A DNA stretch of 63,246 nt, counting the filler, from Craspedostauros australis (taxonomy: Eukaryota), in the NCBI GenBank assembly GCA_030167865.1. It is 5 parts of 5 records of this genome, joined end to end, with 100 filler letters (N's around TTAATTAATTAA, not from the genome) between each part and the next. Parts side by side here need not be neighbours in the genome. Positions count along the whole stretch, not along the records: positions 1 to 26,515 come from JALAGF010004929.1; 4 more parts are not named here. One strand, given 5' to 3'. How positions within the stretch are numbered: position 1 is the stretch's first letter; every line of letters starts with the position of its first letter. The translations under genes were made by a program, and so were the position numbers. This document shows, in pieces, positions 1-62,471 of this stretch. The notes below the pieces were generated by a model, which searched no databases, was not told the DNA's origin, and worked only from the letters and a program-made list of their open reading frames with translations.

Positions 1-1586
1 GCGGTCGTCACCATGCCAACAGATTTGCACACAGAGCAATCTACTCCAAGTCACACACTGCCAAGCCGATTCAAAGCTACAGTGCTGATGCCAGCCGATC
101 CAAGTTTCTGGAAGAGGCGATCTACGAAGAGCACATGGCGAACAAGGCAGAGGGAAATGGTGAGAAGCCGCGAGGACCATGGGTGCTGCGCGCTTCCATC
201 GACCGTCCCGTATCACGCTATCGTTCTCATCTCTTCATGAGTTGCACTCTCGCCATTGCGCCAAAGCTACAGTCGAGGCCCTCACCAAGTCCCAGGAGGA
301 GTGATCACTCACTGTTGGAGCAACAAATGCCAGGGTCACCATCCATGCCGATCTTCGAAGCGAGCAGTGCCAGCATGGCGGAAAGACAAGAACCGACGAG
401 CCAGCCCAGTCCAAGCATCCAGAGAGCTTGACGAGCAAAAGAAGAAACCAACCAGCAACACTGTGCAGAGTGCGAGTGCCGTATTGCGGATCATGGTTGA
501 CACAGAGTTCCAAAAGGCACAAGAAGCACACGGCCAGCAATCCATGGCCCATGAGCACCGTATACCCATATGTCCTCCTTTGTGGTGCTCCCAACTTCGT
601 TGATGAGGCGGAGGTTCCTGTCGATCACCTCTGTTGAGCATCGATGCTCTGGGAGTCACGAGCCAAGACGATGGCGCTCGTGCCTCTGGATAGAACACGC
701 ATGGAATTGTATGTTGGTGGTCCGTGTGGCAGGAACAGTGGAGGCGTCACGGTATCACTCCGCCTGTTGATTGCTGAACGTGTCAACTCATCCCAATACA
801 CAATGTGATGTTGGTTGGATGTTGAGGACTCTTGTTGTTCGCGCGGATGGTGATGGTTGCAATGTGGTGGGATGGCAACCAGCCAAGTCCCAATGAGATG
901 TGTCGCAACCAACAGAGGCAACCAACAAAGGCAACCAACAAAGGCAGTCACATTGGTGGTTTCATCGCTGTTCAAGGCATTGGTTCACATCTCAAATTGG
1001 TGCTTGCGATGGCAGGCGGACAAGGGTCAGCGGTCTTGCAGATGCCACGATAACACAAGCAAGCGTGGGCCATGGTGCACATGGTGGTGGCGGCGGTGGT
1101 GGCCACGATGACAGCTCTCTCTGTTTCCGAAGACTTTGACGTTGTTTGCTTCGGATTGGTGTTGCGTTGATTGTGGCCAAACGAGAACTCTGTTGTGGTG
1201 CTTCTTTCTTGTTGTTGGTCGCACGCATTTTCGTGATGGATGGGAACAGAAAGATCCAATCCGCGCGAACCAGACGCGTTTGATCAAAAGGAGACAAACA
1301 CAGGCAAACAGAAGGAGGAGACCATGCGAACAAGACAACAGCACACACACCACCCAACCCCACACTCAACCGCGTGAACAACAGACATCGAATTGCCACT
1401 CATATTCATCACACAGCGTATGGTACTCATACTCATACTAATACAAGCTGTTGCATACACAAACATCGATATCTCTTNCATAGGCAGCTCCGACCACAGA
1501 CATCCTCGACAGCCAATCCAACGTAAATCGTCCAACGTCCAACGTCCAACGTCTATCGTCCAGCAACCATCCACCACACTCTCAAA

Positions 1587-3494
1587 ATGCCGAGTGTTAC
1601 GAACCAACAACTCATTGATGCTGCCATAGCAGGTGACTTGTCAGTGTTGAAGGAGTGGAAGAAGCAGAACAAGACGCAGAATGAAGGAGATGGTGTCCAC
1701 TGCAAAACCAACACTGGTTTGACTCCCCTTCATTGGGCATGCTACAACGGCCACCTGGAGTGTGTCAAGTACCTCATCGAATCATGTGAGGCGGACATCA
1801 ACTGCAAAAACAACGGTGGTGACACTCCCCTTCATCTGGCATGCTACAACGGCCACCTGGAGTGTGTCAAGTACCTCATCGAATCATGTGAGGCGGACAT
1901 CAACTGCAAAAACAACAATGGCAACACTCCCCTTCATCGGGCATGCTGGAACGGCCACCTGGAGTGTGTCAAGTACCTCATCGAATCATGTGAGGCGGAC
2001 ATCAGCTGCAAAAACAACGATGGTTGCACTCCCCTTCATCTGGCATGCTGGAACGGCCACCTGGAGTGTGCCAAGTACCTCATCGAATCATGTGAGGCGG
2101 ACATCAGCTGCAAAACCCCCGATGGTTGGACTCCCCTTCATCTGGCATGCTCCAAAGGCCACCTGGAGTGTGTTGCGTACCTCGTTGCATCAGCCAATGC
2201 CGATGTCGACATCCAAAACAACGACAACAAAACCCCCCTCAATTTGATCGATGCAACACTTCAAATCAAGATGATAAAACGTCTCGATCATCTGAGTCAC
2301 CGCAACTCACAACTGCAGGAGGAGAACGAACACCTGGAACAGCAGCTGAAACGGGAGAAGGAAGCGAAGAGGCAGAATGAGCAGGAGAACGAACAACTGA
2401 AACAGCTGTTGGAACAGAAGGAGCAAGAGAAGACACAGAAGGAGCAAGAGAATGAACAACTGAAACAGCAGTTGGGACGAGAGGAGGAAGAGAAGAAGCA
2501 GAATGAGCAAGAGAACGAACAACTGAAACAGCAGTTGGAACAGAAGGAGCAAGAGAAGACACAGAAGGAGGAAGAGAATGAACAACTGAAACAGCAATTG
2601 GAACGGAAGGAGGAATCAATGCAGTGCTTGCTCTCGAAAAGTCAACAGGAGAATGAACAACTGAAGCGGAAGTTGAAACGACATCTCAAGATCAGCATCG
2701 ACCAAGATCGTTGCGCCGCTGTTCATGCTGAGGCCATCGCAGACGTTACGTTTCTGTGCGGACAAGGGGACGACCAACAATCAATCAAGGCAAACTCCGG
2801 AGTCCTCATGATCACTGTCCCATCCATTCAGACACTGATCAACTCTGGAATCCAACATCAATGCGCTCACGATGGTGCCCATGATGGCGCTCAAGATAGA
2901 ACTGAACCCATCCAAACAACCGTCCCTCTTCCCAACCTTCAACCAAAACACGTCCGATACGTCCTCCAATACATCTACAGAGGTGAGATATCCTTCAACA
3001 ACAACACTCATGACTTCGCTGGCGATGATGACGCAAACCAGCCAACTCCCACCCTCACGGGACAGGATGATCTGCAACAGCTGATCCTTGTGGCCAACGA
3101 GTTCGGCTTCTGGCGACTCAAGCTTGTTCTTGAAGCAGAGTTGGCCCGCAAGCATCTCACAGAAGACACCATGATAGATATGTTGATATTCGCCCATCAA
3201 CACAACTGTGTGGTGTTGAAGGATGCAGCAATGAGAATGGCAGCAGAGAGAGAGAAAGATATGTTCACTCATCCAGATTTCAGCAAGCTGATTCCACACC
3301 ATCAACTGATGGGAGGCATTCATGTCCTCCGCAGTGGGGGAGCGGAGAGTGATGGTATTGATGGTGAGTACAGTCACATGTCCATGGTGGAGTTGTACAA
3401 GGTTGTCGATGAGGATGAGGGTACAGCACAAATGGATTCATACATGGATCGGGCGACACTGGTGGACTTCGTCCGCTCTATGAGAACCAATTGA
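1587..3494 (+). CDS. Ankyrin-repeat / coiled-coil / BTB-POZ domain protein (635 aa, intronless)
   Basis: Five GxTPLHxACxxGHLECVKYL ankyrin repeats. E/Q/K-rich heptad region follows. C-terminal BTB-like motifs: ADVTFLCG...VLQYIY...LILVANEFGFWRLKLVLE...LIFAHQHNCVVLKDAAM. Confidence 0.9.
   Translation: MPSVTNQQLIDAAIAGDLSVLKEWKKQNKTQNEGDGVHCKTNTGLTPLHWACYNGHLECVKYLIESCEADINCKNNGGDTPLHLACYNGHLECVKYLIESCEADINCKNNNGNTPLHRACWNGHLECVKYLIESCEADISCKNNDGCTPLHLACWNGHLECAKYLIESCEADISCKTPDGWTPLHLACSKGHLECVAYLVASANADVDIQNNDNKTPLNLIDATLQIKMIKRLDHLSHRNSQLQEENEHLEQQLKREKEAKRQNEQENEQLKQLLEQKEQEKTQKEQENEQLKQQLGREEEEKKQNEQENEQLKQQLEQKEQEKTQKEEENEQLKQQLERKEESMQCLLSKSQQENEQLKRKLKRHLKISIDQDRCAAVHAEAIADVTFLCGQGDDQQSIKANSGVLMITVPSIQTLINSGIQHQCAHDGAHDGAQDRTEPIQTTVPLPNLQPKHVRYVLQYIYRGEISFNNNTHDFAGDDDANQPTPTLTGQDDLQQLILVANEFGFWRLKLVLEAELARKHLTEDTMIDMLIFAHQHNCVVLKDAAMRMAAEREKDMFTHPDFSKLIPHHQLMGGIHVLRSGGAESDGIDGEYSHMSMVELYKVVDEDEGTAQMDSYMDRATLVDFVRSMRTN
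1698..2207 (+). repeat. Five tandem 102-bp (34-aa) ankyrin units, near-identical at DNA level
   Basis: Units start at 1698, 1800, 1902, 2004 and 2106. The block ggccacctggagtgtgtcaagtacctcatcgaatcatgtgaggcggacatc is identical in units 1-3 and has one change in unit 4. Confidence 0.95.
2322..2675 (+). repeat. 63-bp (21-aa, three-heptad) coiled-coil tandem repeat with alternating A/B units
   Basis: ENE(H/Q)L units at 2322, 2385, 2448, 2511, 2574 and 2649. Units 2 and 4 (EQKEQEKTQKE) match each other, as do units 1 and 3 (...QNEQ). Confidence 0.9.
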
Positions 3495-5142
3495 TCCAAA
3501 GGGATTGAGGCGGACGGCACTGCTGAGGAAGAGGAGTGAAGTGCCATACCATACTATCACAGAAGTCTTCGAGAAGCGACCGCATGACGGATTTGAGTTG
3601 ATGGATAAACCTAGTCGTCAGAATAGTCATTAGGATAGAATCTGTGTGAAAGGAGCTGGAGCAACTTGAGATCCAATCATTCAATGGTGCGTCCGGCATG
3701 CCTTCACCGTCGCCTTTGGTGATGTGCACAGCATGCTGCTCCATGCACTCCCGTATCGTTCACAGCACGGTCTGGCTGGGCCGCGAGATACGCATAATCT
3801 TCTGTGAATGAATTGCAGATGATCCCGGTTGGCGTAAGGCACGTTGCTGTGCAGCATCATTGGCCAATGCGACATGAAGAAGATGGTTCAGCCACCACTG
3901 TCATCGCCGTGATCGTTGTTGCCGATCATATGGTTTCCGCATTTGTTTGTTTCGTTGGTGTGGAAGGAGTTGTGTGGGAAGCTATGGTGGACCCTGCGGG
4001 CGTCATGCATGGCTTGTTGGACTCGAATCCAACTTGACGAGGTGGAGCGTATTGCGACAGTTAGCTTGTTGTTGTTGTTGGTGCTGCTGCTGCTGCAGTT
4101 TGTGCATGATGTCGCGCAAGGCACGCATGTATGCCAGCAGCTGCATGGTTTTCGATAGGTATGGCCGACAAAGATGACGAGCAATGGGAGAAGTTGCCAA
4201 CGTCATTGCACACGATTTCTTTGATCTGTGGATGGGACGGCACAGTACCTCTGTCTCATCATGTGCGGTTTGTGGTGGCGACGTATCGCTTCGAGCATCG
4301 GTATGAACAGGCGTGGCTGGTTGTGGTGCGTGTAGTGGGGACTGAGGAACATCTCCAAACTGATGGCTCTGCAGGTCTCGGAAGAAGTTGCTGAGTCCGA
4401 TCTCACAGATGCACCCGTTCAACATGTGCTGGATCTCCGTTTCTGATGACGCATAGGACATCTGTGTGAGTGGATGCTGATACTGATGACTTGAATCCAG
4501 ACCGCACCATGGGCCATGACATGTCTTGCCATGGCTGTTGGTTCTGTTGTTGGCGCTGCGATTGCCCATGTCCCAAGATCTTCTCTACTCCGGAGCAGTC
4601 GGTTTGATATCTTCCTTTCTGGTGTTGTTGAGCGATGCGACAAGTTTGAGATGGCTGTTCATCACCGCTCGCCATTCATCATTGGCATCATCATTGGCAT
4701 CATCATCGGCATCATCATCGTCTCTCGCCATGGTCGCCTTCATCGATGCTGGTTGGCGTGCCATACTTTGCGCAGCCGCCGCTTGCTTGATTACTTCATT
4801 GCTGTGTTGCTTCGCTGATTGTTGCTTGACGGACAATGTCTAAGTGTTGGCTGATACCTCCATCAATGTAAACATAGTCATGCCATTTCGTCTCTCTCCC
4901 TCTCTCTTTCTCTCTTTCTCTCTTGTGTTGTGTTGATGTTGTTTGATGGATTGCCGCGCGGGGTCGGAGATTCGTTGTTTTGGGTGGTGTCAAGAATTGT
5001 TGGCTTGTTTGGTGAGCACTCGTCTGTCTGCCATCCGTAGTTCAATCTGTCAGCATCACCTCATAAATCCTCTCTCTCCTCACATCACACTGTCACAATC
5101 AACTTCATGCGCAACCTGCACAGAACGGAAAATGCAACAAGC

Positions 5143-26515: not shown

Positions 26516-26615
26516 NNNNNNNNNNNNNNNNNNNNNNNNNNNNNNNNNNNNNNNNNNNNTTAATTAATTAANNNNNNNNNNNNNNNNNNNNNNNNNNNNN
26601 NNNNNNNNNNNNNNN
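26516..26615. other. Artificial scaffold spacer (N44-TTAATTAATTAA-N44)
   Basis: Exactly 100 bp with a six-frame stop linker. Identical structure occurs four times. Confidence 0.97.
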
Positions 26616-47545: not shown

Positions 47546-47645
47546 NNNNNNNNNNNNNNNNNNNNNNNNNNNNNNNNNNNNNNNNNNNNTTAATTAATTA
47601 ANNNNNNNNNNNNNNNNNNNNNNNNNNNNNNNNNNNNNNNNNNNN
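47546..47645. other. Artificial scaffold spacer
   Basis: N44-TTAATTAATTAA-N44. Confidence 0.97.
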
Positions 47646-51279: not shown

Positions 51280-51379
51280 NNNNNNNNNNNNNNNNNNNNN
51301 NNNNNNNNNNNNNNNNNNNNNNNTTAATTAATTAANNNNNNNNNNNNNNNNNNNNNNNNNNNNNNNNNNNNNNNNNNNN
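51280..51379. other. Artificial scaffold spacer
   Basis: N44-TTAATTAATTAA-N44. Confidence 0.97.
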
Positions 51380-53221: not shown

Positions 53222-53261
53222 NNNNNNNNNNNNNNNNNNNNNNNNNNNNNNNNNNNNNNNN
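53222..53261. other. 40-N assembly gap (no linker)
   Basis: Run of N. Confidence 0.95.
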
Positions 53262-56051: not shown

Positions 56052-56151
56052 NNNNNNNNNNNNNNNNNNNNNNNNNNNNNNNNNNNNNNNNNNNNTTAAT
56101 TAATTAANNNNNNNNNNNNNNNNNNNNNNNNNNNNNNNNNNNNNNNNNNNN
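56052..56151. other. Artificial scaffold spacer
   Basis: N44-TTAATTAATTAA-N44. Confidence 0.97.
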
Positions 56152-56251: not shown

Positions 56252-57703
56252 ATGGACTTTGATATTGCAACGGCATTGCGAGACAACATCACATCGGTGC
56301 TTCTCCTCCTGCTCGCACTTGCCATCGGATGGTTGGTTGTCGCCTTCAACAAACCACCCGCCAAGGATGCTCCCGTCAAGACTACTGTTGGGATCATGGA
56401 GTCTATCAAGATGTTTGTGTCATCCGAATCGCCATGGTGGCATCTCCAACTTCGAGAATCTTTGGGGTCCTCCATCTTTCAGCACAACATCCCCATCCCC
56501 GGTGGTATGTATGTCCTCTGCTCCGCGAAGGATCAGCGTGAAGTTCTGCTCGACAAGACGGCTGACAAGCCGTTGCAACTGCTTGCAAGTGTCGATACCT
56601 TGATTGGACACAAGCAGATGTCCATGCGCTCAACACTTGACCCACGTACGAAGCAAATGAGGAAAGCTATCTTGCACTCGCTTTCTTCTTCGGAAGTCAA
56701 TCGAATGAATTCCATCTGCACGAAGTACGTCAAGCAGTGGGAAACAGAGTTCCTCGAGAAGCTGGCAGACACCGACGCCACGTTCGATCCATCCATCGAG
56801 TTGCCAAAGACCGTGTTCAAGTCCATCATGGAAGCGGCCTTCGAATACGAATCGACTCCGGAAGACTTCCATTTCTTCACATCCAACTTCGAAGTGGGCG
56901 CACGTGAGTTCATCTTCCGCCAAGCCGTCAATCCCTTGCGGAAGGCATTCAGCTTCGTGATCCCAGAGGTCTGGGCGGCGCGCAAATGCTGCTCCGCTAT
57001 GCAGGACTTTGCGAAGAAGATCTTGATGGCCTATCGCGAGAATCCCAACAAATCGGAACACAACACGTTGATTAAGATGATCGAGTCCAATCCGTACAGT
57101 ATGTGCGAGAAAGAGAAGGTTGCGGAGCTCCTTTCATTGATTATCGGCGGTTTCGATTCGACGGGATACACCCTTTCCAACACTCTCGTGTTACTTGCAA
57201 AGCACCCCAAGGAGATGAAGAAGCTGCAGCAATCGTTGTTGCAGGGCGATCCCGCACAATCCAAGGATCATCTCAAACGCGTGATCACCGAATCCCAGCG
57301 AGTGCTCCCTGTTGCTGCGATGAATCCCATCCGTCTTGTCAATCACGACTTCATCTTGATTGATGAACCTTCCAATCGCAAGGTCAAGGTGCCGAAGGGT
57401 GCCACTGTTTTGCTTCCGCTGATTTTGTCTCACCGAGACAAGATGGTGTTCAAAGATGCTACTCAGTTCAAACCTGCTCGATGGGAGAATCCGACCAAGG
57501 AAATGATTCAGAGCAATCTCTCATTCGCCTTGGGCAATCGTAACTGTCCTGGCCAATCGTTGGCCACTGCTGAGCTCTACGCGGTGTTGCCAAGCATCTT
57601 GTCCAAGTACGAGTTCGAATTGGTGGCGGAGGGCAAACTGGATTATTTCATGACATTGAAATACACCAACACCAAGCTCCGTGTGAAGAGGGTGCAAACT
57701 TGA
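56252..57703 (+). CDS. Cytochrome P450, copy 1 (483 aa)
   Basis: N-terminal anchor, I-helix GGFDST, K-helix ESQR, FKPARW and heme motif FALGNRNCPG. Confidence 0.95.
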   Translation: MDFDIATALRDNITSVLLLLLALAIGWLVVAFNKPPAKDAPVKTTVGIMESIKMFVSSESPWWHLQLRESLGSSIFQHNIPIPGGMYVLCSAKDQREVLLDKTADKPLQLLASVDTLIGHKQMSMRSTLDPRTKQMRKAILHSLSSSEVNRMNSICTKYVKQWETEFLEKLADTDATFDPSIELPKTVFKSIMEAAFEYESTPEDFHFFTSNFEVGAREFIFRQAVNPLRKAFSFVIPEVWAARKCCSAMQDFAKKILMAYRENPNKSEHNTLIKMIESNPYSMCEKEKVAELLSLIIGGFDSTGYTLSNTLVLLAKHPKEMKKLQQSLLQGDPAQSKDHLKRVITESQRVLPVAAMNPIRLVNHDFILIDEPSNRKVKVPKGATVLLPLILSHRDKMVFKDATQFKPARWENPTKEMIQSNLSFALGNRNCPGQSLATAELYAVLPSILSKYEFELVAEGKLDYFMTLKYTNTKLRVKRVQT

Positions 57704-58312: not shown

Positions 58313-59767
58313 ATGATAGACTTGGACTTGGCAACGGCATTGCGAGATAACATCGCATCGGTGCTCCTTCTCCCGCTCGCACTTGTCATCGGATGGTTGG
58401 TTGTCGCTTTCAACAAACCACCCGCCAAGGATGCTCCGGTCAAGACTACTGCTGGGATCTTCGAAACCATCAAGATGTTTGCATCGCCAGAAGCACCGTG
58501 GCGGCATCTCCAACTTCGAGAATCCTTGGGATCGTCCATCTTCCAGCACAACATCCCCATCCCTGGTGGTATGTACGTCCTCTGCTCCGCAAAGGATCAA
58601 CGTGAAGTTCTGCTTGACAAGACAACTGACAAGTCAAAACAACTATATGCAAGTTTCAACAGTATCATGGGACATACACACATATTCACCCGCTCAACTT
58701 TCGACCCAAATTTGAAGAAAATGAGGAAAGCTATCTTGCACTCGTTTTCCTCTGCGGAAGTCAATCGAATGAATTCCATCTGCACGAAGTACTCCAAGCA
58801 GTGGGAAACAGAGTTCCTCGAGAAGCTGGCAGACACCGACGCCACGTTCGACCCATCCATCGAATTGCCAAAGGTCGTATTCAAGTCCATCATGGAAGCG
58901 GCCTTCGAATACGAATCGACTCCCGAAGACTTCCACTTGTTCACATCCAATTTCGAAGTGGCTGCGCGTGAATTCACTATCCGCCAAGCCACCAATCCTT
59001 TGCGGAAAGCATTCGGCTTCATGATCCCAGAGGTCTGGGTGGCGCGCAAATCCTGCTGCGCGTTGCAGGACTTTGCGAAAAAGATGTTGATGGCCTATCG
59101 CAACAACCCCAACAAATCGGAACACAACACGTTGATCAAGGTGGTCGAATCAAATCCGTACGGTATGTCCGAGAAAGCGAAGGTTGCGGAGCTCCTTTCA
59201 TTGGTCATTGCCGGTTTTGATACGACAGGATACACTCTTGCCAACACCCTCGTGTTGCTCGCAAAGAACCCCAAGGAGATGAAGGAGCTGCAGCAATCGT
59301 TTTTGCAGGATGATCCGGCACAATCCGACGATCATCTCAAACGCGTGATCACTGAGTCCCAACGATTGCTTCCTGTTGCTGCAATGGGTGCCGCTCGTGT
59401 CGCCAACCGCGACTTCAGCTTGGTTGATGAACCTTCCGACCGCAAGGTCAAGATCCCGAAAGGCGCTGCCATCATTTTCCCGCAGATCACCTCCCACCGA
59501 GACGAGATGGTGTTCGAAGATGCTCAACAGTTCAAACCTGATCGATGGGAGAATCCGACCAAGGAAATGGTGCAGAGTTTCATTCCATTTGCCGCGGGTA
59601 GCCGCAACTGTCCTGGCCAATCGTTGGCCATAGCTGAACTTTACTCAGTGTTGCCAAGCATCTTGTCGAAGTACGAGTTCGAATTGGTGGCAGAGGGCAA
59701 CCTGGATTTCTTCATGACACTGAAATACACCGATACCAAGCTCCATGTGAAGAGGGTGAAGGCTTGA
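58313..59767 (+). CDS. Cytochrome P450, copy 2 (484 aa)
   Basis: Start MIDLDLATAL by homology to copy 1. AGFDTT, ESQR, FKPDRW and FAAGSRNCPG. Confidence 0.95.
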   Translation: MIDLDLATALRDNIASVLLLPLALVIGWLVVAFNKPPAKDAPVKTTAGIFETIKMFASPEAPWRHLQLRESLGSSIFQHNIPIPGGMYVLCSAKDQREVLLDKTTDKSKQLYASFNSIMGHTHIFTRSTFDPNLKKMRKAILHSFSSAEVNRMNSICTKYSKQWETEFLEKLADTDATFDPSIELPKVVFKSIMEAAFEYESTPEDFHLFTSNFEVAAREFTIRQATNPLRKAFGFMIPEVWVARKSCCALQDFAKKMLMAYRNNPNKSEHNTLIKVVESNPYGMSEKAKVAELLSLVIAGFDTTGYTLANTLVLLAKNPKEMKELQQSFLQDDPAQSDDHLKRVITESQRLLPVAAMGAARVANRDFSLVDEPSDRKVKIPKGAAIIFPQITSHRDEMVFEDAQQFKPDRWENPTKEMVQSFIPFAAGSRNCPGQSLAIAELYSVLPSILSKYEFELVAEGNLDFFMTLKYTDTKLHVKRVKA

Positions 59768-61019
59768 GCATCGACCTGTGCATTAGAAATCACTTCCACG
59801 TCATAATGAATTCGTGAACTTATGGTTGTATGACAAATGTACTCTGTGATCATGTCAACAATGGATCCGTATCTGGTGAGGGAAAAGGCTGGATACACGT
59901 CGAACAAATTATACAGGCTCGAATCAACAATTTGAGTGGTGTTCGACCAAAGCCAAGTTCTGAATGGGCTTGCCTTGACCCTCACAGCGACGGGTGCAGC
60001 TAGATGCTAAGGACCAGGAACAACTCCTACGGACAACCACATCGGGAGCAGACCTTCTGAATGGTGCCCACGCCTATCCTTTCTAGCCGAGTAACTATCC
60101 GCGCATTGCCGATCCCGAAACCAGTTAGATCGAGAAGTTCTTCAATGCAATATGGCCGCCGAGACGGAACATCAGCTACAAGATATTATTCCCATGAAAT
60201 GGAGGAATTTGTGTTTTGCTCACGATCTCGCGCCGCATGAATTTGAAGACAAGGTCGTACATGTTTAAATCTCGGAGCACGGTCTCTTCAAGTGTCATGA
60301 AGTCATCATCAACGCATGTTATGGCAACAAACCACATTCACTCTCTCTAGATTCAAGATCTGCGTTTGTGTATGAGTGTCCCTCAGTTCTATTCAACTGG
60401 GGCACTTGGCCATGGCTCCATTGTTGGAATCTGCGGTGGAACGTCAAACTATCTATTTCTTGTAGATCGATCGAATCACCTCCAGACAAGTCCTGGATAC
60501 CTTGGATACAAAATCGCGTTTCGGTCATCTCACCTTTCGCGCCACCGCCGAGACGAAGAACCATAACTCTCACTCCAACTCAGAGAGGATACAGCTGCGT
60601 TCGACGAGATTGTCCTTTGTCTTGTGCTTTCCTCACCCGAGTCGCTCACGTCCGGCGGAGCTGTTTTATTCACCCCAGTACTTCTCAGGACGCGCGCTTC
60701 TGTCCCCCCTCTCTCTGTCGCTCTGACCAACGAAGGATCCGAGTTCTTGCAGACTGACGACGTGTATGAGTTCCGAGTTGGCATTGCTGGTCACAAGAGG
60801 GAGGATCAGAGGGTCGACAAAGAGAGAGAGAGAGAGAGAGAACAATCATGGCTTGCGTTATCCCGACTTTCGTGGTGTGCTCGCTGCCACCAGCGTGCTG
60901 CTTCCTCCAGCCACCACTCTTTCGCCCACACATCTCAGAAATCGAACACCAGGAGAAAGAAGAGCAAGATCATCTCCACAATCTCGACCACGACTACTAC
61001 CACGATGACTACGACCACG

Positions 61020-62471
61020 ATGGACTTCGACATTGCGACGGAATTGCGAGACAACATCGCATCGGCGCTTCTTCTCCCGCTCGCGCTTGCCATCGGATGG
61101 TTGGTCGTCGCCTTGAGTAGACCACCCGCCAAGGATGCTCCCGTGAAGAGTCCTGTTGGGATCATGGAGTCTATCAACATGCTAACGTCATCCGAATCGC
61201 CATGGTGGCATCTCCAGCTTCGAGAATCTTTGGGATCGTCCATCTTCCAGCACAACATCCCCCTCCCTGGTGGCACATACGTCCTCTGCTCCGCGAAGGA
61301 TCAACGTGAAGTTCTGCTCGACAAGACGACTGACAAGCCGATGGCCATATACACAGGCTTCGATGGTATGGTTGGACACAAACAAATGGCGACACGTCCA
61401 ACACTCGACCTGCGTTTCAAGCAAATGAAGAGGGCAGTCGCGCACTCGTTTTCCTCTCACGAAGTCAGCCGGATGAATTCCATCTGCACAAAACACACCA
61501 AGCAATGGGAAACAGAGTTCCTCGAGAAGCTGGCAGACACCGACATGACGTTCAATCCTTCCGTCGAATTGCTGAAGGTCGCATTCAAATCCATCATGGA
61601 GGCAGCCTTCGAATACGAATCGACTCCCGAAGACTTCGATCTGTTCACATCCAATTTCGAGGTGGCTGCACGTGAGTTCGCCATCAGTCAAGCCGTCAAT
61701 CCTTTGCGGAAAGTATTCGGCTTGATGATCCCAGAGGTCTGGGTGGCGCGCAAATCCTGCTCCGCTTTGCACGACTTTGCGAAGAAGGTCTTGATGGCCT
61801 ATCGCGAGAATCCCAACAAATCGGAGCAGAACACGTTGATCAAGGTGGTTGAATCAAACCCGTACAGTATGTCCGAGAAAGATAAGGTTGCGGAGCTGCT
61901 TCTCTTGCTCATTGCCGGTTTTGATACAACAGGATACACTCTTGCCAACACCCTCGTGCTGCTGGCCAAACATCCCAAGGAGATGAGAGAACTGCAACAG
62001 TCGTTGTTGCAGGATGATCCGGCACAATCCAAGGATCATCTCAAGCGCGTGATCACCGAATCTCAACGAGTGATCCCTGTTGGTGCATCGATCTCCGCTC
62101 GTCTCGCCAACCGCGACTTCATCTTGGTTGATGAGCCTTCCAACCGCAAGGTCAAGATCCCGAAAGGTGCCACCGTCTTCCTTCCACAGATCACGGCCCA
62201 TCGAGACGAGATGGTGTTCGAAGATGCTACTCAGTTCAAACCTGGTCGATGGGAGAATCCGACAAAGGAAATGGTGCAGAGTGTTATTCCATTCGCTGTG
62301 GGCAATCGCAGCTGCCCTGGCCAATCGTTGGCGATTGCTGAAGTCTACTCGGTCTTGCCCAGTGTCTTGTTGAAGTACGAGTTCGAATTGGTGGCGGAAG
62401 GCAAGTTGGATTACTTCCTGACGATGAAATACGCCAATGCCAAGCTTCGTGTGAAGAGGGTGAAGGTTTGA
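61020..62471 (+). CDS. Cytochrome P450, copy 3 (483 aa)
   Basis: Start MDFDIATEL by homology to copy 1. AGFDTT, ESQR, FKPGRW and FAVGNRSCPG. Confidence 0.95.
   Translation: MDFDIATELRDNIASALLLPLALAIGWLVVALSRPPAKDAPVKSPVGIMESINMLTSSESPWWHLQLRESLGSSIFQHNIPLPGGTYVLCSAKDQREVLLDKTTDKPMAIYTGFDGMVGHKQMATRPTLDLRFKQMKRAVAHSFSSHEVSRMNSICTKHTKQWETEFLEKLADTDMTFNPSVELLKVAFKSIMEAAFEYESTPEDFDLFTSNFEVAAREFAISQAVNPLRKVFGLMIPEVWVARKSCSALHDFAKKVLMAYRENPNKSEQNTLIKVVESNPYSMSEKDKVAELLLLLIAGFDTTGYTLANTLVLLAKHPKEMRELQQSLLQDDPAQSKDHLKRVITESQRVIPVGASISARLANRDFILVDEPSNRKVKIPKGATVFLPQITAHRDEMVFEDATQFKPGRWENPTKEMVQSVIPFAVGNRSCPGQSLAIAEVYSVLPSVLLKYEFELVAEGKLDYFLTMKYANAKLRVKRVKV

Follow-up and report, generated by a model that had tools for sequence, protein, structure and literature searches.

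In a 63,246-nucleotide window of DNA from Craspedostauros australis (assembly GCA_030167865.1), we studied the gene at 1587–3494, which encodes an array of near-identical ankyrin units followed by a coiled coil and a BTB domain. The protein is probably a SPOP-type adaptor with ankyrin repeats in place of the MATH domain. Its array would have expanded recently under diversifying selection at the groove positions, and the proteins bound there would be directed to CUL3-dependent ubiquitination. This proposal is carried by the order of the domains, the SPOP-like fold of the modeled BTB part, the single ankyrin–BTB (ANK-BTB) group beside MATH-BTB proteins in the BTB tree, the near-identity of four ankyrin units and the clustering of the differences between them. 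The locus itself is a genuine protein-coding gene, and the nuclear genome that carries it is of the raphid-diatom type.

Variation among the ankyrin units

The gene and its repeat units are located as follows.

1587–3494, + strand: whole gene, an uninterrupted open reading frame (ORF) of 635 codons plus stop, taken from the ORF list.
1698–2105, + strand: ankyrin units 1–4, 102 bp (34 aa) each, starting at 1698, 1800, 1902, and 2004; recognized by Tandem Repeats Finder (TRF), by reading in frame, and by Pfam Ank families (E 1e-40 to 1e-66).
2106–2207, + strand: ankyrin unit 5, like units 1–4 up to codon 22 and diverged thereafter (73.5–78.4% identity to units 1–4).

TRF reported a period of 102 with 4.7 copies and 91% matches at 1699–2173, in frame with the ORF. 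The Pfam ankyrin matches were all far over their cut-offs (PF13637, 218 bits; PF00023, 195 bits; PF12796, 185 bits). Paired helices were present in each unit of the structural model, as in ankyrin repeats, with a unit length of 34 residues and not 33. The DNA identity among units 1–4 was 88–93%. By hand count, protein identity was 85.3–88.2% among units 2–4 (102 aa) and 79.4–85.3% between unit 1 and these. Unit 5 added 17 variable sites after codon 22. Since it forms the edge of the duplicated tract, the "five nearly invariant units" of an earlier sequence-only reading are really four and two thirds: the description holds for units 1–4, and fails for unit 5 beyond codon 22.

Among units 1–4, 14 of the 102 sites were variable. 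They lay within eight codons, and 13 of them fell in codons 1–16. Only one difference was purely silent (GGT/GGC at codon 7); the other seven codons (1, 4, 6, 8, 13, 16, and 23) changed the residue. Nine of the 14 variable sites were contained in codons 6, 8, 13, and 16, each of which differed at two or three bases. Across units 1–5, these read ACT/GGT/AAT/GAT/GAT at codon 6 (T/G/N/D/D), TTG/GAC/AAC/TGC/TGG at codon 8 (L/D/N/C/W), TGG/CTG/CGG/CTG/CTG at codon 13 (W/L/R/L/L), and TAC/TAC/TGG/TGG/TCC at codon 16 (Y/Y/W/W/S). Further variation in units 1–4 was seen at codon 1 (H/N/N/S), codon 4 (T/N/N/N), and codon 23 (V/V/V/A). The sequence-only reading had described a tandem 102-bp array in frame, the same four codon lists, and the single silent difference, all of which proved correct. 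It had also described a framework nearly invariant even at silent sites, with changes concentrated in a few codons, and the site counts and substitution proportions bore this out.

Random placement of 14 sites filled eight codons or fewer with P = 0.00035 (100,000 draws), a result independent of the choice of codons. The 5′ part of the unit was variable at 13 of 48 sites and the 3′ part at 1 of 54 (Fisher P = 0.00024). Over the whole unit, the proportion of changed nonsynonymous sites (pN) was 0.073–0.141, versus 0–0.049 for synonymous sites (pS), in all six pairs of units 1–4. At codons 6, 8, 13, and 16, pN reached 0.40–0.75, while the other 30 codons gave a pN of 0–0.056, with a whole-unit pS of 0–0.05. 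Fisher tests of pN at the four codons against pS yielded P values from 0.031 to 2e-5 per pair, which are too optimistic because these codons were picked after viewing the data.

The coiled coil of the same ORF served as an internal control. Its tandem repeat at 2322–2615 consists of 63-bp (21-aa) units, ENEQLKQQLEQKEQEKTQKEQ, in 4.6 copies with a 126-bp higher order (TRF). In nine of the ten unit pairs, pS (0.29–0.57) exceeded pN (0.13–0.36), as is ordinarily the case; in the remaining pair, units 2 and 4, just two sites differed. Over all pairs, the full ranges were 0–0.57 for pS and 0.04–0.36 for pN. The coiled-coil repeat is a second recent tandem expansion in the ORF, with a pattern opposite to that of the ankyrin units. 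In the paralogue P0034, the coiled coil is much shorter.

A second expansion of the slippage type is also what one would look for if the gene encoded an everyday housekeeping protein, an ANK-BTB adaptor or scaffold serving a single, fixed endogenous partner, its array enlarged by slippage and its unconstrained surface positions drifting neutrally. The genomic context suits such a protein. The Pfam scan of 21 long ORFs identified the other genes of the window as ordinary nuclear ones: a protein kinase, Rpn13, an aldo/keto reductase, an M24 peptidase, a P-type ATPase, and three tandem P450s. Moreover, groove positions are the most variable ones in ankyrin repeats generally, according to an extract of PMC1261162. 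Drift, however, predicts a codon rate no higher than that of silent sites, against the pN of 0.40–0.75 seen at the four codons beside a pS of 0–0.05. Of the eight variable codons, seven alter the residue, and four of these differ in two or three bases; matching positions vary in the paralogue P0127 and in arrays fused to Roc-like domains (ANK-Roc, below). We therefore consider neutral drift in a housekeeping protein unlikely. Relaxed constraint alone cannot produce, at some codons, a rate of change ten times that of silent sites. The explanations left are positive selection, mutational bias, and gene conversion that homogenizes the framework while selection protects these codons.

No second copy of the 102-bp unit or of the protein was found elsewhere in the 63-kb window. 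Targeted mutagenesis resembling that of diversity-generating retroelements was set aside: the window holds no template copy of the unit, and the variable bases span more than one base type. The search for a reverse transcriptase in the window was the Pfam scan of the 21 long ORFs.

Position of the variable residues in the ankyrin fold

The ankyrin model was a single-sequence prediction of residues 1–240 with a mean predicted local distance difference test (pLDDT) score of 71.7, and it was used for secondary structure only. Helix 1 covered unit codons 10–16/17 and helix 2 codons 20–29. The loop preceding helix 1 held codons 6 and 8, and helix 1 itself held codons 13 and 16, one turn apart; the model thus agrees with the placement proposed earlier from the sequence. 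From the ankyrin fold, we infer that the variable residues would be exposed on the concave face.

For the comparison with designed ankyrin repeat proteins (DARPins), the numbering was anchored on TPLH, using what we take to be the DARPin consensus. DARPin positions 33, 2, 3, 5, 13, and 14 then correspond to unit codons 3, 5, 6, 8, 16, and 17. These six are the randomized positions of DARPin libraries, as given in an extract of PMC1261162. Three of the seven changing codons of units 1–4 (6, 8, and 16) coincide with them. Another three (1, 4, and 13, equal to positions 31, 1, and 10) adjoin them, and codon 23 is in helix 2. The claim that the variable codons are largely those randomized in DARPins could be retained for codons 6, 8, and 16, but not for codons 1, 4, and 13, which merely adjoin, or for codon 23; codons 3, 5, and 17 are fixed.

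Like DARPins, the window protein has an N-cap, identical internal repeats, and a C-cap, and varies at the beta-turn and helix 1 (positions 3, 5, and 13, that is, codons 6, 8, and 16). Unlike them, it is natural, and its unit is Cys-rich and 34 residues long, with one extra residue in the segment from helix 2 to the loop. Positions 33, 2, and 14 are fixed in units 1–4, whereas positions 31, 1, and 10, constant in DARPins, vary. Two near-identical units of P0127 differ at positions 4, 5, 6, 13, 16, 17, and 21. Two ANK-Roc proteins unrelated to the family, P0057 (9 units) and P0021 (10 units), vary most at positions 4, 6, 8, 13, and 16. Position 13, which is not a DARPin position, recurs as variable in this 34-aa unit type.

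Domain architecture and the BTB half

The remaining features of the gene and its upstream flank are listed below.

1517–1562, + strand: 7/14-bp microsatellite, TCCAACG in 6.6 copies, 25 bp upstream of the start codon (TRF).
1587–1697, + strand: N-terminal capping half-repeat, residues 1–37, with two helices (6–15 and 18–28 in the model).
2208–2306, + strand: degenerate last ankyrin unit or C-cap (DIQNNDNKTPLNLIDATLQIKMIKRL...), from in-frame reading and the family alignment.
2322–2687, + strand: predicted coiled coil, rich in Q, E, and K, containing its own tandem repeat at 2322–2615 (TRF).
2733–3017, + strand: BTB/POZ domain core, residues 383–477, with two low-confidence insert loops (Pfam PF00651, model, and fold match).
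3066–3332, + strand: last BTB helices and 3-box/BACK-like helices (DDLQQLILVANEFGFWRLKLVLEAELARKHLTEDTMIDMLIFAHQHNCVVLKDAAMRMAA...), from family conservation, a PF24570 match below cut-off, and BLASTP to P0266.
3381–3491, + strand: family-specific C-terminal motif SMxELYxV...YMDRxxLxxFVRS, from the family alignment, in a low-confidence part of the model.

The ORF at 1587–3494 (+) is intronless and encodes 635 aa. Its start, MPSV..., matches the N-termini of the paralogues P0034 and P0127 (MPN...); its C-terminus, ...VRSMRTN, is the ending of the fragment P0252 as well. Both ends of the gene model are supported because the paralogue transcripts match (P0034 and P0127 at the start, P0252 at the end). 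The N-cap motif QLxxAAxxGDLxxxKxW is common to the family, and the C-cap NxxxxTPL..A was also present in P0121–P0124 in the family alignment. The C-terminal motif was kept in seven of nine aligned family members, the remaining two being fragments that end upstream of it. Another microsatellite, GCAACCAACAAAG in 3.2 copies, lies upstream of the gene at 905–946.

Pfam confirmed the fusion of the ankyrin array to a BTB domain, which the sequence-only reading had proposed. PF00651 scored 26.5 bits versus a cut-off of 20.5, over profile positions 9–80 of 110 and residues 383–477. No NACHT or NB-ARC match was obtained in the protein at E ≤ 0.01; because this nucleotide-binding oligomerization domain (NOD) is absent from the Pfam matches, the protein is not a NOD-like receptor (NLR). 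Pfam gave no MATH match in the protein either, and the ankyrin repeats occupy the MATH place. Since the defining MATH domain is absent, the protein stands outside the MATH-BTB family in the strict sense.

The C-terminal model was built on six family sequences. Its mean pLDDT was 64.7, with values mostly of 75–93 in the BTB core and the helices that follow it (helices 145–234 of the model). Foldseek against the PDB returned 56 matches at E ≤ 0.001. SPOP chains filled the first ten places (E 4e-7 to 7e-6), with the SPOP BTB 4j8z at the top (E 4e-7, TM on target 0.75); KEAP1, KBTBD2/4, gigaxonin, and KLHL11 came next, all of them CUL3 adaptors. The profile search of the PDB with an alignment of full-length rows (A2) was swamped by ankyrin matches and was uninformative for the BTB. 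The last BTB helices and the helices after them form the best-conserved stretch of the family, a region that we take to form the 3-box in SPOP. By BLASTP, this 3-box-like stretch aligned over 73 residues at 37% (E 3e-8) with P0266, which is a MATH-BTB-BACK protein. Judged by its predicted fold and by its distant sequence relatives, the BTB part is SPOP-like, in agreement with the CUL3-adaptor type suggested earlier. Prediction of a BTB homodimer (score 0.01, mark 0.32) was evidence neither way.

The BTB might instead act purely as an oligomerization or scaffold module, so that the protein would be a multivalent scaffold of ankyrin repeats with no part in ubiquitination, some paralogues perhaps being attached to membranes. 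The low Pfam score of the BTB with its two disordered inserts, the BACK_BPM_SPOP match under the cut-off, the hydrophobic tail followed by RRHARKV in P0122 and P0123, and a conserved C-terminal family motif without a known counterpart would all fit such a scaffold, and BTB–ankyrin scaffolds do exist (for example Btbd11). Yet CUL3 adaptors account for all of the best fold matches (SPOP, KEAP1, KBTBD2/4, and KLHL11), and the nearest sequence relatives without ankyrin repeats are MATH-BTB-BACK proteins. In addition, the best-conserved stretch comprises the last BTB and 3-box-like helices, the very part that aligns with a MATH-BTB-BACK protein. A pure scaffold appears quite improbable to us.

Family, relatives, and public sequence data

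Residues 349–635 were scanned against 1.84 billion protein representatives. The scan gave 90 relatives at E ≤ 1e-3, of which 21 were at ≤ 1e-10 and 10 at ≤ 1e-30. Pfam was run on 24 of the 90: the close ones were ANK-BTB proteins, and the more distant ones included 12 with MATH and BTB and one with MATH and BACK, several of them matching BACK_BPM_SPOP. The search with the BTB part yielded six proteins of similar length, and the search of shorter proteins gave the fragments P0126 and P0127 as its two best matches. The exact window protein was absent from the protein collection searched. All close members with a named organism belonged to one raphid diatom, whose lineage is therefore the most likely source of the window; other labelled members bore a single transcriptome label or an unspecified transcript label.

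A tree was calculated from 26 BTB parts, namely the window protein and 25 of the 90 relatives from the top of the list, with fragments below 110 aa and weaker matches left out. The 10 ANK-BTB rows formed one group (Shimodaira–Hasegawa-like approximate likelihood ratio test, SH-aLRT, 100), adjoining P0125, P0253, and P0254. Within it, the window protein grouped with P0034 and P0126 (SH-aLRT 99). Replacement of MATH by ankyrin repeats is the simplest reading of this topology, and is not demonstrated by it because the tree is unrooted. P0125 and P0247 are members of the BTB family without an ankyrin match; P0125 is placed just outside the ANK-BTB group, beside MATH-BTB proteins. P0122 and P0123 end with a hydrophobic stretch and then RRHARKV, a tail-anchor-like arrangement suggesting that some paralogues are membrane-tethered.

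Going by the sequences retrieved, the set of close family members is small and multi-paralogue. The idea of a gene family in the earlier reading is borne out, and unit numbers differ among the paralogues: P0034 has 1 unit, P0127 at least 3, and the window gene 5. Across the family, members carry from 1 to about 10 ankyrin repeats, which are mutually diverged in most; near-identical units were found only in the window protein and in P0127. The P0127 fragment shares the unit type of the window protein and, where the two align, 72% identity with it. Its framework reads ESCEANI where all four window units have ESCEADI. Such gene-specific framework residues point to expansion or homogenization inside each gene.

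Of three public sequencing runs listed, one (X1) contained the ORF stretch, with 0.51 of its words; X2 and X3 gave no match, and the listing named no RNA run that contained it. On 1300–3800, 1124 of 30,610 X1 contigs matched at ≥ 90% identity (285 at ≥ 99%, 352 at 95–99%, and 487 at 90–95%). At position 1816 (unit 2, codon 6), most of the X1 depth carried GAT, not GGT. In one X1 contig, 1697 and 2020 are linked through 19 other letters, the 322 bases between them being absent; this contig would represent a relative with a different form of the array.

The many close variants in X1, this contig among them, bear on whether the array is an assembly artefact, that is, a chimera merged from reads of several paralogues. 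The N runs of the assembly, with a single N at 1478, and the exact internal repeats of up to 79 bp would also be expected of a chimera. But the reading frame is intact across the units and every boundary is in register, and unit-specific codons flank every unit within 79 bp, a distance bridgeable by ordinary reads of 100–150 bases. Even a chimera would imply family units with such a pattern, and P0127 shows the pattern independently. An artefact is very unlikely.

Elsewhere in the window, the three tandem cytochrome P450 genes are at 56252–57703, 58313–59767, and 61005–62471 (+), each encoding about 485 aa (Pfam p450, E 1e-41 to 1e-47). The N runs at 26516–26615, 47546–47645, 51280–51379, and 56052–56151 are paired 44-base runs with 12 bases between them, a lone 40-base N run occupies 53222–53261, and the single N is at 1478. 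All of these look masked or gap-filled and not biological.

Comparison with known systems

An extract of Dyrka et al. 2014 (PMC4986451) describes fungal NLR repeats of high internal conservation (HIC) as near-identical ANK, TPR, or WD units with a few concave-face positions under selection, length polymorphism, and suspected concerted evolution. Its threshold for HIC is > 85% identity across 100 aa or more. Units 2–4 of the window gene lie narrowly above it. An excess of amino-acid change on the putative concave face is suggested by a strong signal within the window, with a loop/helix-1 placement, in a sample of only four to five units. Like the fungal HIC-NLR repeats, the window units are near-identical, and their number varies, here between paralogues (1, at least 3, and 5). 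Unlike those receptors, the partner domain is BTB and not NACHT/NB-ARC, the host is a diatom-type alga, and the data comprise only four to five units from one assembly. In its evolutionary pattern, the array is like those fungal repeats, as the sequence-only reading had noted.

The expansion of MATH-BTB proteins in nematodes and plants has led to the hypothesis of foreign-protein targeting, according to an extract of PMC4063957. By sequence and fold, the BTB of MATH-BTB proteins is the nearest relative of the window BTB. The window gene resembles the MATH-BTB(-BACK) adaptors (SPOP, plant BPM, and the expanded nematode and grass families) in having a recognition domain N-terminal to a SPOP-type BTB with a 3-box-like part, and in belonging to a lineage-specific expanded family. 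It differs from them in carrying an ankyrin solenoid and a long coiled coil for MATH, and in that diversification also occurs between repeats within the gene, not just between paralogues.

Ankyrin solenoids are the substrate-binding part of cullin-RING ligase receptors in the ASB (ANK–SOCS box), FEM1, and poxvirus ANK/PRANC proteins. These dock through a SOCS box, a VHL box, or an F-box-like element on another cullin, and we know of no HIC pattern in them. FEM1C was among the PDB ankyrin matches. Plant NPR1/BOP and animal ABTB/BTBD11 contain both BTB and ankyrin parts in one chain, with the BTB of NPR1 N-terminal to the ankyrin repeats. No close sequence relation to them was seen: as far as the relatives of the BTB part were scanned, no NPR1/BOP or ABTB/BTBD11 protein was among them.

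The highest-scoring ankyrin matches in the large protein search were the ANK-Roc arrays, whose Roc scores were under the Pfam cut-off. P0001, P0021, P0057, and P0006 consist in part of long rows of near-identical units; these units are of the window gene's 34-aa type (xCKxNxGxTPLHxACxxGHLxxVxYLIxEC...) and likewise vary at positions 4, 6, 8, 13, and 16. Unlike the window gene, they are fused to a Roc-like GTPase, as P0040 and P0068 are to an NB-ARC NTPase, and not to BTB. Both unit types may simply have converged on the ankyrin consensus. The ANK-Roc arrays (unit xCKxNxGxTPLHxACxxGHLDVVQYLITECKCDP) are perhaps a separate family of diversifying receptors.

A listing-level literature search on ankyrin/BTB proteins in diatoms, on Craspedostauros ankyrins, and on expanded diatom ankyrin families and viruses found no such family described. 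What is new is the HIC ankyrin array on a SPOP-type BTB, together with the host group; HIC repeats and expanded MATH-BTB adaptors were already known.

Proposed mechanism and significance

The adaptor that we favor would follow the plan of SPOP (recognition domain, linker, BTB, and 3-box), with a capped ankyrin solenoid in the MATH place. Its four to five internal units may have arisen by recent tandem duplication, or may be kept alike by gene conversion or unequal exchange. Selection would keep or drive the residue differences at the groove-facing codons 6, 8, 13, and 16, and less so at 1 and 4. As the groove residues differ by repeat, each repeat would present a different contact surface. The ankyrin groove is the putative substrate-binding face, the coiled coil and the BTB could pair the protein, and the BTB/3-box part would dock on a cullin-3 ligase. 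Proteins bound in the groove might then become ubiquitinated.

Several results weigh against this proposal. On the side of the BTB, its Pfam score was modest, PF24570 (BACK_BPM_SPOP) reached 19.3 bits at residues 528–555, under its cut-off of 27.4, and 112 of the 287 residues of the C-terminal model (mean pLDDT 64.7) were below 50. A phmmer search of the BTB part against the PDB gave no match at E ≤ 1, and this analysis provided no link of the gene to infection or to a cullin. Concerning selection, the sample is tiny, a single gene from a single assembly with four to five units, the hypervariable codons were chosen post hoc, and sequence exchange among repeats breaks the assumptions of dN/dS tests; with codons 3, 5, and 17 fixed in units 1–4, three of the six DARPin positions vary. 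Regarding the array itself, the longest exact internal repeat is 79 bp, unit number and order are without independent confirmation, and Logan contigs were unable to bridge the units, confirm their order, or show a transcript. All X1 depth at 2680, 2750, 2753, and 3016 carried another letter; since the window letters are lacking at these four sites, X1 holds close relatives there and not the exact gene. In metagenome contigs, none of 233 matches from the protein-pattern scan (A2) encoded a relative, and a DNA pattern of the unit framework had no match.

The mechanism could be carried further. A raphid-diatom lineage may have turned a SPOP-type CUL3 adaptor into a self-diversifying intracellular receptor, by swapping MATH for a "natural DARPin". 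The near-identical 34-aa units of such an array would come and go and exchange sequence, while being driven apart at the groove residues. A dozen or more such paralogues would recognize changing foreign proteins (effectors of viruses, oomycetes, chytrids, or bacteria) and deliver them to the proteasome. We regard this extension as speculative and quite unlikely to hold in full, and an immune or non-self role for the gene is, in the same way, doubtful. If it were true, the family would be an algal, ubiquitin-based counterpart of the fungal HIC-NLRs and of the nematode MATH-BTB/F-box hypothesis.

To our knowledge, very little is known of how diatoms recognize viruses or parasites inside the cell. 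Near-identical arrays that vary at binding-face residues are a hallmark of fast-evolving recognition modules in fungal NLRs, and expanded CUL3 and SKP1–cullin–F-box (SCF) adaptors are proposed ubiquitin-based pathogen sensors in nematodes and grasses. If the pattern reflects a recent neutral expansion, the gene would be merely one more lineage-specific BTB adaptor. A diatom family uniting both ideas would be a concrete, testable candidate for intracellular recognition in algae, and would illustrate in nature the principle on which DARPins are designed.

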